Assembly (NCBI GenBank): GCA_963793425.1
Contig: CAWCAG010000009.1
Coordinates: forward strand, 896,001-960,000
DNA: 64,000 nucleotides
Origin: an uncultured cyanobacterium
Lineage (GTDB): Bacteria; Cyanobacteriota; Cyanobacteriia; Cyanobacteriales; CAWCAG01
Reading direction: 5' to 3'
Shown here: positions 15,001 to 24,832 of the stretch, piece after piece
How positions within the stretch are numbered: the first letter of the stretch is position 1
How the letters are laid out: each line of letters starts with the position of its first letter
Made by a program: the position numbers

Positions 15001-18000
15001 CAATCGATGTGATTAAATCTGCCACGGCTTTAGGTGGTTATCAAGCTTTGCCTCCTAAGCAGCTTTTTGAGGTGGAATATTGGGATCTTGAACAAGCAAA
15101 ATTAAGGAAAGGGGGAAAAGCGCCCCTATTCACTGGGGAGATTGCTTTAGTTACGGGGGCAGCTTCTGGTATTGGTAAAGCTTGTGTTGATTCTCTGTTG
15201 AAGCGAGGGGCGGCGGTAATCGGTTTGGATATTAATGATCAGGTTACCTCTATTTGGGACTGTCCTGATTTTTATGGTCTTACCTGTGATGTTACCAATC
15301 CTCAAGCTGCTATTAAAGCCTTAGAACAAGCAGTGAGAAAGTTTGGTGGCTTAGATATGCTGATCCTCAATGCTGGTATTTTTCCTGGAGGTTGTGGAAT
15401 CGCCGATTTAACTGATGCCCAATGGCGTAAAGTTATGGCAGTTAATCTGGATGCTAATTTAGCCCTGATGCGGGAATCTTACCCTTTCCTTAAACTTGCT
15501 CCCCAAGGGGGCAGGGTAGTGGTAGTTGGCTCCAAAAATGTCCCGGCCCCGGCCCCGGTGCAGCAGCTTACTCGGCCTCCAAAGCGGCTCTCAACCAACT
15601 AGCAAGGGTTGCTGCTTTGGAATGGGGCAAAGACAAAATCCGTATTAACAGCCTCCATCCTAACGCTGTCTTTGATACAGGTATTTGGACAGAAGAAGTA
15701 TTAAAAGATCGCGCTCAACATTACGGCTTAACCGTAGAAGAATATAAAAAGAATAATATCTTACAAGTGGAAGTGACGAGCCATGATGTTGCTGAATTAG
15801 CTGCGGAAATGTGTGGCCCCTCTTCGCCAAAACCACTGCTGCCCAGCTTCCTGTTGATGGGGGTAATGAACGAGTGATTTAGGGAAAAAGCAGCAATACG
15901 ATCCTCACAAGTTGCGGTATAACCCTGGTAGGATAGTTTCAACAAACAGAAGAAACCCGATCAGTAAAACCTATATGAATAGAGTTGAGGGAGCAAATAT
16001 CGGACTCAAAAATAATTCTGCTCCTTTCCCTGGGAAAATGTGGAACAAAGTTGTTGCCTTATTAGCTGTTGCCAATCTCCTTTTAGTCTTGTTTAATCTC
16101 AGCTACATTCCCCTTCGGGATATTTATCTACGACAGATTCCTGCTTTGGTAGCTTTATATGATCCGATTAAAAGTATTGAAGCCCATCCCGATACTAGCC
16201 GCTATTTAAAAACAGTAGATGCTTTGACTCAGCAACTTCCTAAAGTAGGATTGCAAGCCCCAGCTACCAGAGAACTTTTTAATTTCTTGCGGCAACAAAG
16301 CACTGAGATGTTAGCAGAGAATCCCTTTTCTGTTGCTAATAAGTTTGGCACTTTTGCTAAATTGAAACGACGCATTGAACATCATCTTGATACTCAATCA
16401 GCAAAAGAAGCTTTTAATCAATTTTGGAGTCAGGACTATTTTACTAAAGTAAGCCCCCCAGAAGCATTAGGCTTTTTTGATAGCAAAATTCGCCCTTTAT
16501 TAGAAGTTAATTATTATCGTTCTGTGGATGAAAATGGTCAATTTATTGATGATTTTTGGCGCATTGATCTTTATTTTATGGTCTTTTTTGGGCTGGAATT
16601 TTTGTTAAGAAGTTTCTGGAAGTCTCGGCAAAGAGAGGATTTAACCTGGGGAGATGCCCTCTTACGCAGTTGGTACGATGGATTGATGTTACTTCCTACC
16701 TGGCGTTGGTTAAGAACTGTTCCGGTGGCAGTACGCTTGCATAAATCTGGTTTAATTAACTTAGAACGTATCCTGGCCCAGGTTACCCATGAACCCGCTG
16801 CTTACCTCGCTGATCGGGTGGGGATGTTTTTGATGGTACGCTTGATTAATCAAACTCAGGAAGCTGTGGAAACTGGGGAAGCGGCGAAGATGTTACTTCA
16901 GCCAGGGGATTATATTCAAGTTAGCGATGTAGATAAGGTTGATGCCATTCTAGATCGTATCTTGCAAATAGCTATTTATAAAGCCGTTCCTCAAGTGCAG
17001 CCAGAGTTAGAGTCTTTGTTGCATCATAGCTTGAAGGGAGCCTTCAAAAGCTCAGATTTTTACCAAGCTTTGCAACAAGTACCGGGGCTTTCTGCCCTGC
17101 CCCAAGAAGCTACTGAACAGTTAGCAGATTATTTATCCCAAGCTGCCTATGAGGTTTTGGCTACTTCCTACGGAGATGTGCAAGGAAGAGAGTTATTTGA
17201 GAATTTGACAGCAAATTTTAAACAAGTGTTGCGGCGAGAGTTACAGGATGAAAAAACTCAAGCAGAACTTCAATCTTTGTTAGCTGATTTACTTGAAGAA
17301 GTCAAATTAAATTACATTCAAGGTGCTAAGAAACAAGATCCAGAAGCAACTTTAGCTGAAGCAGAAAAGTTGCGGAATCGCCTAGAGAAGGAAATTTAAG
17401 GAAGTTTAAAAGTCTTGCTGGGTTGCATTTGCTTTTTTCTCCCTTGACATGATATTATGTATATGGTGGAAAAGGTGCGCTCTTGGAAGCAATTTTTCAA
17501 CAAGAATTTAATTAACTCCGCAGCAACTTATATTTTGCTAGGCAATCTTAGACAGAATCCGGTTACTAAAGTACCTTGATAAAATTGACCGAATAAAGTT
17601 CTCAAACCCTTCTTTCTGCTCCCTACTCCCTGCTCCCTGCTCCCTGCTCCCTACCCTAACAGGTAACTCACACCACTCAACACCGATTTGTATCAGATTG
17701 AGCCAAAATTAAGTTGAGAATATTTAATTCTTTAGAGTTCATCAAGTATTTATCACTAAAGGATTTATTTCTCATTTCTTTGAGGCTATAACTACGAAAG
17801 ACTAGGAAAGGAAATTTTTCGTATTTATGACCAATAGGAACAATTTGGGCAATAGGAAAGATGGATTTTAAATAGAATTCGAGAAGTTGACGAAATCTTT
17901 GATCTTCTGGTTCAATTTCTTTATTTTGGAAATAAACTGAAAAGACATCACCAACTAAGAAAATGAATAACGGGACAGCATAATATTGATCAAGATATTG

Positions 18001-24000: not shown

Positions 24001-24832
24001 CTTAAGGAAAGGATAATCTTCATCTTCATGTTTAAGAGTAAGTCGTTGCTTAGATAGTCCGGGATAGTCTTTATTAAAGTCATAACTCAAACTAATTTGA
24101 TTACCAACCTTACCTTGAAACTGATTTAAAGCAGTCCATAATTCTCTAACAAAATCTTCTCTAAATTGGTAATTCCTCTCTTGTAACCAAGAATCTAAAC
24201 ACTTTTCCAAACAAGCTCTAATTTCTCTGTTACAACTCACAAAACTGTCTTTTGAAGACTCAGTTAAATGGGTGGTTGCCACCTTCGCCCCGCGCCAATT
24301 ACTTCCCAAAGGCATCTCTATACCCCCTTGAGTTGCTAAACTATAAGCAATCTCATCTACATCAATAAATAGCTGCTTACCATTGCTAGAAATTCTCCAA
24401 AGATTAGTAGTTTGTAGACGTTCTAAAATAGCTTTTAGTAGACTGCTGTAATCAACACGAACTAAACTGCGATCGCCTTCCCTGATCGTATTCACCATAA
24501 TCCTAACATCTTCAAACTAATGGTCTATTTCCATCTTCCCACACTTCCACTAGCCACTAACTATTAGCTATTAGCAAAAACCAGAATCTAGGCTGTACCT
24601 TACTAGACTAAGAATTGCTATATTTTATGCAGGGAATTGTGTTTGTAAGCAAAAGTTTACAAATTTTGGGCTGATCAATAACTATTTAGTAACTAACTAA
24701 GTAGGTAAACCCCTCCTAAATCACTACTTGACAAAAGTGTCTTTCTGTGAAGTAAATTACAACTATTTTCCTAAATCCCTTGAATTACTAACAATTCCAG
24801 CCTTCAACATTCATCCCCACAAAAAGTATTAG

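Follow-up and report, generated by a model that had tools for sequence, protein, structure and literature searches.

What is the function of two large families of proteins that are encoded side by side in many cyanobacteria, and that are annotated throughout the databases as 'hypothetical protein' or 'helicase-related protein'? This question has been raised by a locus of an uncultured cyanobacterium (assembly GCA_963793425.1, contig CAWCAG010000009.1), and the window analysed here is the whole stretch of 64,000 nucleotides at positions 896,001 to 960,000 of that contig. The initial annotation had placed in it an ORF for a proposed Argonaute/PIWI-fold protein and an ORF for a helicase partner, and their coordinates, strand and lengths proved exact by ORF calling and translation. 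Both ORFs are on the minus strand with 102 nt between them, and their positions and those of their domains are listed in Table 1.

Table 1. Features of the two-gene locus, in positions of the window
Feature	Position	Strand	Basis
Argonaute/PIWI-fold protein gene (P0001, 1014 aa)	21454..24498	-	ORF, translation, fold matches; without family match
N-terminal lobe, residues 1-559	22822..24498	-	AF2 model; Y247, P313 and K342 invariant in 36 diverse relatives
MID-like Rossmann-type domain, residues ~560-720	22339..22821	-	strand/helix alternation in AF2 model
PIWI-like RNase H-fold domain, residues ~725-1014	21457..22326	-	MID-PIWI alignments, model residues ~550-1008
Helicase-nuclease partner gene (P0002, 1224 aa)	17677..21351	-	ORF, translation; Helicase_C in relatives
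Probable RecB/Cas4-type PD-(D/E)xK nuclease fold, residues 1-395	20167..21351	-	AF2 model, VIA ranks
SF2 helicase core, residues ~396-935	18547..20166	-	conserved motifs (20 relatives) and Pfam
C-terminal domain, residues ~936-1224	17680..18546	-	conserved among relatives; without family match (Pfam scan of relatives)
Spacer, 102 nt, with imperfect inverted repeat 21380-21411 / 21430-21461	21352..21453	.	
Upstream intergenic region, common to the pair and divergent groEL; presumed promoter region	24499..24856	.	

Since the intergenic spacer is short in other loci (median 36 nt, minimum 15 nt), the pair is probably one operon; the inverted repeat of the 102-nt spacer is not a conserved part. 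When the upstream intergenic region was scanned with promoter consensus sequences, one 9-of-12 promoter-like site was found on the minus strand (24649-24622), and promoter-like sites were no commoner in the region than in shuffled sequence.

Fold and conserved residues of the 1014-aa protein

Searches of Pfam, PADLOC and NCBIfam with the 1014-aa protein gave nothing above noise, and a PADLOC scan at E<=1 matched neither protein of the pair. None of 36 diverse relatives was matched at E<=0.1 by the PIWI families of Pfam (Piwi, pPIWI_RE and Med13), and the best hit of the family profile among PDB sequences was an unrelated chain (E 0.58). The rescan had the same outcome as the initial annotation, in which neither Pfam, NCBIfam and PADLOC nor the sequences of PDB were said to offer a match to the protein, and no profile method (Pfam, PDB profile or hhalign) ties the family to any PIWI family. 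The language-model neighbours reported there were likewise obtained again: 16 of 30 neighbouring clusters carry pPIWI_RE families, with a score of 0.95 and 211 of 256 features in common.

A new AF2 model of the protein was poorer (pLDDT 75.4, pTM 0.59) than the earlier one (87.1 and 0.86, respectively), and confidence was low at residues 812-994, within the latter half of the PIWI domain. Even with this independent model, the Argonaute/PIWI proposal made earlier is supported at the fold level. All 49 Foldseek matches in PDB at E<=0.001 were Argonaute, PIWI, SPARTA or SPARDA chains (best 4n76, E 4.2e-5), and in VIA-align over 48,161 chains ranks 1-26 were occupied exclusively by Argonaute, PIWI or Med13, from the top chain 1yvu (Z 9.2, 304 residues aligned, rmsd 4.5) down, the first unrelated chain being Pelota at Z 5.7. 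A second structural look gave 30 chains with Z>=8, and the 50 entries shown were Argonaute-type without exception. The bilobed fold of MID and PIWI (RNase H-like) domains is present in the model, whose pLDDT is only 75.4, and some VIA alignments start as far back as residue ~152 in the N-terminal lobe (model residues 152-1004 against TtAgo 4-674). The predicted structure therefore shows the 1014-aa protein to be, at the fold level only, a very divergent Argonaute/PIWI-fold protein, its modelled likeness to Argonautes being one of fold and language-model features.

The conserved residues in the MID and in the PIWI domain that had been listed previously were found again in a set of 188 relatives. 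In the MID-like domain, Q688 is kept in 185, G689 in 186, N702 in 185, Y708 in 186 and K713 in 163 of them (with R in 16 others), S706 is likewise among the conserved residues, and we infer that the domain may serve as a pocket for a 5' end. The order of these residues, with Q688-G689 before Y708 and K713, differs from Y..K..Q..K, which is given as the canonical order in the ApsAB paper. In the PIWI-like domain, D740 is kept in 184, E755 in 171, D873 in 172 and H955 in 187 relatives, and the four residues are at strand ends or in a helix, as expected, in a model that is weak over 812-994. E755 is only 15 residues past D740, and this spacing differs from that of the glutamate finger of classical Argonautes.

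The presence of Med13 chains among the best fold matches (7kpv_D Z 8.2, 8tqc_D Z 6.8) raises the question of whether the Argonaute-like fold is a scaffold only, which would hold no guide, much as Med13 has the fold but is not known to bind a guide, and which would give the helicase-nuclease a subunit for regulation or for binding DNA ends. The departure from the canonical MID order and the lack of a sequence link to any guide-binding Argonaute would agree with such a role. We nevertheless consider it highly improbable, because strong conservation of polar residues falls precisely on the MID-like and the PIWI-like part, and because a pure scaffold would not need the D-D-H set found in 172 to 187 of the 188 relatives.

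The helicase partner and its N-terminal domain

The 1224-aa partner matched Helicase_C (E 2.4e-6) and P-loop families in Pfam, and among its relatives (n=20) Helicase_C was matched in all 20, DEAD in four and ResIII in three, with AAA_22 also found. Its helicase motifs, namely Walker A (G419-T427), DEIT (624-627), D662-A663-S664, T831-G837 and Q864-G871, vary little or not at all among the 20 relatives, and a Walker A, a DExx, a SAT-like motif, a motif VI of the form Q..GR.GR and two RecA-like domains are all found in the protein. The Helicase_C match and the intact motifs bear out its earlier description as an SF2 helicase. Among language-model clusters that bear a name and do not belong to its own family, those of type I-D Cas3' helicases come closest to it (0.89), which we treat as a lead only. 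The sole invariant cysteine of the family is C309, in the N-terminal domain, and because there is only this one, the helicase has no DinG-type Cys cluster.

For the N-terminal 395 residues, an AF2 model was obtained with pLDDT 78.6 and pTM 0.76. In a wide VIA comparison with representative chains, ranks 1-7 were AddB, Dna2, ACE1, AdnA/AdnAB and MGME1, all of the RecB/Cas4 family (Z 4.6-5.5), and in a second structural look ACE1 (Z 5.2) was followed by MGME1, RecB and Cas4, the top ten being RecB/Cas4-family nucleases without exception. The two ACE1 chains scored Z 5.0 (9iab) and Z 5.2 (9iac), and the Z values of 5.0-5.5 behind the nuclease call are below the level that the tool states as common by chance. 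Foldseek found nothing with this domain (best E 0.75), hhalign against PDDEXK_1 proteins gave a probability of 1.4%, and a PF12705 search had no match at the helicase gene. Conserved residues of the domain are E15, D165, D182, S184, K217, D249-K250-E251, K254, Q257 and Y261; among the nuclease motifs, D165, D182 and Q257-x3-Y261 are invariant, and the third motif is D182-x-S184, not (D/E)-x-K. The structural ranks weakly suggest that these 395 residues are a RecB/Cas4-like nuclease domain. The nuclease-like domain was absent from the initial annotation.

Linkage, distribution and genomic setting

The helicase gene is directly downstream of the Argonaute-like gene in 73 of the 78 genome loci that could be judged, in all 19 judgeable divergent metagenome loci (33-39% identity), and also in a plasmid copy at 30% identity. 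Among the five exceptions, a helicase gene is 9 kb (L039) or 5.7 kb (L075) downstream or 2 kb upstream (L028), and for L030 a complete pair is on another contig of the same genome. This synteny shows the pair of genes to work as a single unit, and the claim that the pair is kept together in cyanobacteria stands with both the 73 genome loci and the 19 metagenome loci.

Of the 101 Cyanobacteriales genomes searched, 40 have a homologue, and so do 30 of 65 genera; the distribution is patchy, and the prevalence reported for this order is reproduced. The Argonaute-like family comprises 347 representatives at 50% clustering, its relatives are found in 277 species genomes, and the pair occurs also in Bacillota (Gottfriedia and Epulopiscium relatives). 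Six conjugative plasmids carry the pair, beside integrases. The location of the pair varies between families (e.g., in genome G059), and paralogue duplication occurs. In the window, the GC content of the pair is 0.338 against a median of 0.404 and is the lowest among 6.8-kb stretches. Since identity to a genome of the same genus is 72% for the Argonaute-like protein and 78% for the helicase, as against 95% for groEL and 86% for orf495, the pair evolves faster than its neighbours.

Other features have been counted against an interference function. None of the phage records had the gene, and the neighbouring genes are of housekeeping type (purQ-like, Fur, PheT, kinases and groEL) rather than defence islands. 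The same purQ-like gene is upstream of the pair in 22 of 80 loci and synteny is kept within the genus, which looks like long vertical residence, a pattern less usual for defence genes.

Alternatively, the pair could be a housekeeping machine for DNA or RNA maintenance, in which an Argonaute-fold sensor of a structure or strand end and a helicase-nuclease resolver would deal, for example, with R-loops, stalled forks or the chromosome copies of polyploid cells. HIP1 is typical of cyanobacteria, and HIP1-type GCGATCGC sites within the gene suggest long residence. The housekeeping neighbours, the purQ-like gene with its within-genus synteny and the residence suggested by these sites would all suit such a machine, and repair complexes combine a RecB-family nuclease with a helicase. 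Occurrence in about 40% of Cyanobacteriales genomes also speaks for it, but the pair is dispensable, being without a counterpart in 61 of the 101 genomes, and the low GC relative to the window, the copies on conjugative plasmids beside integrases, the faster divergence than neighbours, the variable location and the paralogue duplication are all against it. We regard the housekeeping machine as unlikely, and prefer guide-directed interference.

Proposed function and comparison with known systems

The function that we propose, and that we hold to be somewhat on the probable side, is that of a two-gene, guide-directed nucleic-acid interference module, which would work like DdmDE or ApsAB and would be composed of new families; we infer that it can be labelled a 'defence system'. 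The Argonaute-like protein probably holds a short guide strand whose 5' end sits in the pocket of the MID-like domain (Q688-G689, N702, Y708 and K713), and the guide would pair with invading plasmid or phage DNA. Because the RNase H-like centre of D740, D873, H955 and perhaps E755 is conserved, the protein may itself nick the target. It would then recruit or load the 1224-aa SF2 motor, whose ATPase motifs are intact. The N-terminal domain of this partner, a tentative RecB/Cas4-like nuclease, would see to the processive unwinding and degradation of the target, in the manner of DdmD with DdmE or of Cas3 with Cascade. As an alternative or additional role, the nuclease-like domain may make guides or trim them, a task that ACE1 has for the pAgos of cyanobacteria. 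In a bolder form of this proposal, which we offer tentatively as a possibility that falls short of being probable, a further deep Argonaute/PIWI branch, unseen by sequence methods and with a catalytically competent PIWI centre that DdmE and ApsB do not have, would be coupled to a Cas3-like motor and a Cas4/RecB-type nuclease as a CRISPR-independent 'mark and shred' machine for DNA, and plasmid uptake by many cyanobacteria may have in it one of its main barriers.

If the pair does act in guide-directed interference, two large and widespread families are given a function, and the set of Argonaute-like interference systems gains a member with a catalytic-looking PIWI domain and a helicase joined to a Cas4-like nuclease. 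Transformation and conjugation are difficult in many cyanobacteria, and if a plasmid-destroying module resides in ~40% of genomes, its deletion from production strains would be an obvious step. A guide-programmable nickase and shredder could also serve as a tool. Argonaute relatives missed by Pfam, PADLOC, HMMER and hhalign can be found by fold and language-model searches.

The pPIWI-RE triads are a predicted guide-dependent restriction system with the strict gene order REase, DinG helicase and pPIWI-RE (Burroughs et al., 2013). They resemble the present pair in that a bacterial PIWI-fold protein (~900-1100 aa) goes with an SF2 helicase and, putatively in the pair, with a PD-(D/E)xK-type nuclease, and are the nearest named neighbour of the 1014-aa protein by language-model features. 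The pair might be a far offshoot of the triads, in which fusion of nuclease and helicase would have brought three activities into two genes, and might act, as has been proposed for pPIWI-RE, on RNA-DNA hybrids of transcribed invaders; the 16 of 30 language-model neighbours, the same three domain types and a length of ~1000 aa near that of cyanobacterial pPIWI-RE proteins (904-1085 aa) are in line with this. Profile searches are not: the pPIWI_RE models PF13032, PF18157 and PF13111 of Pfam matched neither the protein itself at E<=1 nor any of the 36 relatives at E<=0.1, hhalign against 10 cyanobacterial pPIWI-RE proteins gave 0.04% and 0.09%, and true pPIWI-RE, searched with PF13032, was found in 23 of 101 Cyanobacteriales genomes and not in the source genome (G000), this locus included. 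The triad has three genes, whereas the pair has two in the reverse of the strict order, the PIWI-like gene being first, and with its single invariant C309 the helicase is without the DinG-type cluster. We judge such an offshoot to be quite unlikely, and on similarity, gene number, gene order and the Cys cluster the pair is distinct from the triads, as the initial annotation had maintained.

In the cyanobacterial APACE1 system an Argonaute works with a Cas4/RecB-family nuclease, ACE1, by which guides are processed and plasmid interference is enhanced; the present pair may be a similar combination. The pAgo of APACE1 is a classical long-A protein recognisable by sequence, whereas the present protein is not so recognisable, and ACE1 is a stand-alone protein of ~266-268 residues, whereas the nuclease-like domain here, whose fold scores are weak, is fused to the helicase. 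In Cas3 of type I CRISPR-Cas, an N-terminal nuclease is followed by an SF2 helicase, as may be so here, and the helicase is loaded at a guide-marked site. The Cas3 families of Pfam and NCBIfam had no match in the present helicase. Cas3 carries an HD nuclease, whereas the nuclease-like domain here would be of RecB/Cas4 type. A general repeat scan of 8.4 kb, with no search aimed at CRISPR arrays, gave no hint of one: a tandem repeat spaced by 14 nt and scattered matches in two or three copies were all that it showed.

For ApsAB of E. coli ST38, antiplasmid activity has been shown experimentally and relatives have been reported in cyanobacteria. The likeness consists in an Argonaute-like protein with a Q-G MID-type motif and a helicase with a PD-(D/E)xK nuclease, the latter putative in the present pair; ApsB is described as being without a PIWI RNase H fold. 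In cyanobacteria an ApsA-like gene (1317-1349 aa) precedes an ApsB-like gene (767-798 aa), whereas here the 1014-aa Argonaute-like gene precedes that of the 1224-aa helicase. Homology to ApsB and ApsA was a point left open in the initial annotation, and no similarity to the cyanobacterial ApsAB-like loci was found. The comparison was made with cyanobacterial ApsA-like and ApsB-like proteins and not with E. coli ApsAB itself, and with narrow target profiles (Neff ~1.9) hhalign gave 0.2% and 0.04% for the Argonaute-like protein against five ApsB-like proteins and 0.2% for the helicase against four ApsA-like proteins. Two motifs of the present helicase were absent from the supplementary sequence tables of the ApsAB paper. 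Of 301 genomes, 9 carried the ApsA motif, which the source genome lacked.

PADLOC 2.0.0 includes models for DdmDE, and no DdmE chain was among the fold-search entries shown, an absence that does not amount to a test. In DdmDE, a plasmid defence system of Vibrio cholerae, the pAgo-like, DNA-guided DdmE, which is catalytically inactive, recruits DdmD, which translocates along plasmids and cleaves them. The inactivity of DdmE, compared here by description only, contrasts with the conserved D740, D873 and H955 of the present protein, and the nuclease-like domain of the present helicase is N-terminal, unlike that of DdmD. DdmDE resembles the pair in having two genes, for an Argonaute-fold protein and for a large SF2 helicase with a nuclease domain, the latter putative in the pair, and we take it as the best working model for the pair.

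Linkage and surroundings of the two genes

The initial annotation had described a tandem of two genes, one for an Argonaute/PIWI-fold protein (P0001, AGO) and one for a large helicase (P0002, HEL), and this observation has been confirmed by the ORFs, by fold searches, and by synteny counts. In the genome collection, 277 species genomes have a P0001 relative, and the best 80 of the corresponding loci are all cyanobacterial. Loci with at least 300 nt of room were regarded as judgeable, a definition to which 78 of the 80 conform, with two lacking room. HEL follows AGO directly and in the same orientation in 73 of these 78 (median spacer, 36 nt), one of which (L034) has a truncated helicase remnant. 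Among the five exceptions (L028, L030, L039, L075, and L077), the helicase is found 9 kb downstream in L039, 5.7 kb downstream behind two inserted kinase-type genes in L075, and 2 kb upstream in L028, and another contig of the L030 genome holds a second, complete pair. Six Microcoleus-type loci (L051, L057, L060, L062, L066, and L078) are AGO-HEL-AGO triads, in which full-length AGO paralogues, each approximately 42–45% identical to P0001, stand on either side of a single helicase gene; searches of three of these triad genomes gave no other full-length helicase match.

A divergent metagenome clade (L129–L152), with 33–39% identity to P0001, has AGO followed by HEL in 19/19 judgeable loci. For the pair in this clade, identities are 33–39% and 36–42% over full-length matches, the ORFs frequently overlap by a few bases, and the locus GC ranges from 0.34 to 0.56. 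Both genes are likewise found together on a plasmid, in a copy of 30% identity. One 2028-aa metagenome ORF (P0278) reads as an AGO-HEL fusion, its residues 1024–1938 being 39% identical to P0002 1–933; read-through or faulty assembly may account for this, and little weight is given to it because it comes from a lone short contig (6674 nt) and none of the 19 related loci is fused.

The GC content of the pair is 0.337 versus 0.411 in the remaining window, the lowest of all 6.8-kb stretches there (median 0.404). A groEL gene in divergent orientation is located upstream of the pair and a 495-aa ORF (orf495) downstream. Around the pair, the tRNA scan detected no tRNA, the repeat scan no array-like repeats, and the promoter search no higher frequency of promoter-like sites than in shuffled sequence. 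No Rfam family was matched at the pair, and the sole match nearby, 4 kb off, is NsiR1, which sits between a giant repeat protein gene and an aldolase/dehydrogenase-like ORF. Reading by eye, the 2608-aa ORF has a metalloprotease-like motif (HEIGHALGLQH) near its N-terminus and a very long Gly-/Asp-rich repeat run of the calcium-binding (RTX-like) kind, and the 572-aa and 86-aa ORFs resemble a single aldolase/short-chain dehydrogenase gene broken near 15600, through either a frameshift or an error in sequencing. An inverted repeat covers the inter-gene spacer and the final AGO-like codons; since the median spacer in other loci is so short, most of them probably lack it. Heptamer tandem repeats are found just past the helicase stop codon.

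Positions of the features in the window and in homologous loci
Feature	Sequence	Position	Strand	Basis or remark
AGO-like gene (P0001)	window	21454..24498	-	ORF, 1014 aa, first of tandem
Helicase gene (P0002)	window	17677..21351	-	ORF, 1224 aa, 102 nt downstream of P0001 gene
Inverted repeat	window	21380-21461		imperfect, 32 nt, 78% complementary
Heptamer tandem repeats	window	17607-17655		CCCTGCT/CCCTACT
NsiR1 (nitrogen stress-induced RNA 1)	window	13671-13721	+	Rfam, 41.1 bits vs gathering score 39
572-aa ORF	window	13884-15602	+	reading by eye
86-aa ORF (next)	window	15617-15877	+	reading by eye
2608-aa ORF	window	5315-13141	+	reading by eye
AGO-HEL-AGO triad (example)	locus L066	8001-11003, 11045-14659, 14671-17664
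Uma2-family gene (example)	locus L036	6876-7517
Uma2-family gene (example)	locus L008	7194-7781

Fold matches and conserved residues of the two proteins

Searches of P0001 against Pfam, PADLOC, and NCBIfam gave nothing above noise, no PIWI-type Pfam family was matched at E<=0.1 by any of 36 relatives (18–72% identity), and the best PDB sequence for the family profile was an unrelated chain (E 0.58). An independent model built with 26 homologues (pLDDT 75.4, pTM 0.59; low confidence at 812–994), poorer than the one used initially, led to the same Argonaute/PIWI fold by Foldseek and by VIA-align, a structure comparison with 48,161 representative chains. Foldseek against PDB gave 49 matches at E<=0.001, every one an Argonaute, PIWI, SPARTA or SPARDA chain, with TtAgo 4n76 at the top (E 4.2e-5). 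VIA-align ranks 1–26 are Argonaute, PIWI or Med13, headed by Aquifex aeolicus Ago 1yvu (Z 9.2, 304 residues aligned, rmsd 4.5), and the first unrelated chain is Pelota (Z 5.7); in a further VIA search, 30 chains were found at Z>=8, and some TtAgo alignments cover model residues 152–1004. Among 30 neighbour clusters of P0001 in a protein language model, 16 are pPIWI_RE families (score 0.95) and 14 its own unnamed cyanobacterial family. The predicted Argonaute/PIWI fold is thus well supported, as far as fold and learned features go. These neighbours also bring to mind a far offshoot of pPIWI-RE; hhalign of ten cyanobacterial pPIWI-RE proteins with the AGO-like family gave probabilities of 0.04% and 0.09%, and we regard such an origin as quite improbable.

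Residue conservation was counted across 188 full-length members of the family, aligned with MAFFT. The PIWI-like half retains D740 in 184 members, E755 in 171 (+5 D), D873 in 172 (+4 E), and H955 in 187; in the MID-like part, Q688 is kept in 185, G689 in 186, N702 in 185, Y708 in 186, and K713 in 163 (+16 R), and K969, which we group with the MID-like residues, in 185. A hydrophobic strand terminates in D740, D873 is at the end of a strand ‘LY(I/V)xD’, and H955 is within ‘TLFHFSRYE’. These three residues resemble the D, D, H positions of slicer Argonautes, a likeness taken from sequence motifs and not from superposition, and because they are kept, the family looks catalytically competent at the sequence level. 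An Argonaute-fold scaffold acting without a guide we consider very unlikely beside such conservation.

Helicase_C is matched by P0002 and by 20/20 relatives, and the P-loop is present in all of them. The SF2 motifs G419-T427, D624-E625-I626-T627, D662-A663-S664, T831-G837, and Q864-G871 are invariant or nearly so. The family profile found no relative among PDB sequences; in the language model, the closest named clusters beyond the P0002 family belong to type I-D Cas3' helicases (score 0.89), which we take as a lead only. Residues 1–395, a region unexamined in the initial annotation, were folded with 26 homologues (pLDDT 78.6, pTM 0.76). Foldseek gave nothing for this model at E<=0.001 (best E 0.75). 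VIA-align ranks 1–7 are all RecB/Cas4-family PD-(D/E)xK nucleases, namely AddB and Dna2 (Z 5.5), ACE1 and AdnA (5.0), AdnAB (4.8), and MGME1 (4.7 and 4.6), and the further search listed ACE1 (Z 5.2) followed by five MGME1 entries, RecB, CinB, and two Cas4 chains. The invariant E15, D165, D182, K217, K254, and Q257-x3-Y261 fit the motifs of this family, with a deviating third motif (D-x-S). The P0002 gene was not marked in the genome search with PF12705, and hhalign of the N-terminal domain with 10 stand-alone cyanobacterial PDDEXK_1 proteins gave 1.4%. On the predicted model, a RecB/Cas4-type nuclease fold is probable for residues 1–395. A complex prediction of P0001 550–1014 with this domain scored 0.00, which is uninformative either way.

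Neighbouring genes and distribution

Recurrent neighbours of the pair are housekeeping genes, such as those for a purQ-like amidotransferase (22 loci), Fur, PP2C, PheT, and kinases, together with Uma2 genes, and this neighbourhood speaks against a typical defence island. When 681 flanking ORFs of 80 loci were clustered, no third partner gene common to several lineages was found, and the shared clusters consist only of lineage-specific housekeeping neighbours and Uma2 genes. Genes of the Uma2 family (putative restriction endonucleases) adjoin the pair in 12 + 10 = 22 of the 80 loci (L001–L080); because this family is very abundant in cyanobacteria, their position may be due to chance. A housekeeping role in maintenance would suit such surroundings, and we hold it to be unlikely for a pair with the following distribution.

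Of 101 Cyanobacteriales genomes sampled, 40 have a P0001 homologue (38/94 high-quality genomes; 30/65 genera). The gene is also carried, beside integrases or transposases, by six large plasmids classed by prediction as conjugative, and phage records have no match to the family. Carriers known by name include Trichormus variabilis ATCC 29413, on its plasmid C, and Gloeothece citriformis PCC 7424. Distant full-length relatives have been found in Bacillota (Gottfriedia and an Epulopiscium relative), and a narrower, Bacillota-type alignment gave no locus in metagenome contigs. In a same-genus genome, the synteny orf495, HEL, AGO, groEL is kept, with identities of 95% for groEL, 86% for orf495, 78% for HEL, and 72% for AGO, and in a same-family genome (G059) the pair is at a different location. 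Thus, the pair moves over long time spans but stays in place over short ones, and it evolves faster than its neighbours. In the latter genome (locus L003, contig C27), the AGO copy (approximately 8001–11042) contains a single in-frame TAA, with the ORF stopping early, at 10838; this copy may be decaying, though the helicase there is intact.

Comparison with known systems

The interpretation of the pair as a candidate defence system is supported by the fold matches, the SF2 motifs, the 73/78 linkage, and the distinctness from pPIWI-RE. We judge, at somewhat better than even chance, that it is a guide-directed interference module working like DdmDE or ApsAB, built from families with no detectable sequence relationship to either. 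[quoted passage not shown] No description of the present family was found in the literature searched, in which subscription journals were thinly covered and bioRxiv supplements were outside the scope.

Cyanobacterial ApsAB-like loci, located by a short motif pattern, occur in 9/301 genomes and were not found in the source genome. They consist of an ApsA-like gene (1317–1349 aa) followed by an ApsB-like gene (767–798 aa), and their N-termini read, by eye, like the cyanobacterial entries in the tables of the ApsAB paper. Homology to ApsB/ApsA, initially left open, has now been checked, and no profile-profile similarity to these cyanobacterial proteins was found: hhalign gave probabilities of 0.2% for AGO-like versus ApsB-like (0.04% for the MID-PIWI part) and 0.2% for the P0002-type helicase versus ApsA-like. 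Two P0002 motifs are absent from that paper's supplementary tables. True pPIWI-RE is present in 23/101 Cyanobacteriales genomes and was not found in the source genome. Nine genomes among the 101 sampled in both searches have both it and the AGO-like gene (G007, G019, G032, G036, G046, G057, G070, G079, and G085), with G070 and G085 additionally matching the ApsA-like motif; therefore, the systems co-exist and are not mutually exclusive.

DdmE is inactive, whereas the P0001 family looks from its residues to be competent, and ApsB is described as being without an RNase H fold, whereas P0001 has a PIWI-like half retaining D740/D873/H955. The pair differs from DdmDE, ApsAB, and pPIWI-RE in gene order (PIWI-like first), in gene number (two), and in having its probable nuclease-like domain N-terminal to the helicase. 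The cyanobacterial long-A pAgos of APACE1 work with a stand-alone Cas4-family nuclease, and APACE1 is thus a relevant precedent for a partnership of an Argonaute with a Cas4-like protein.
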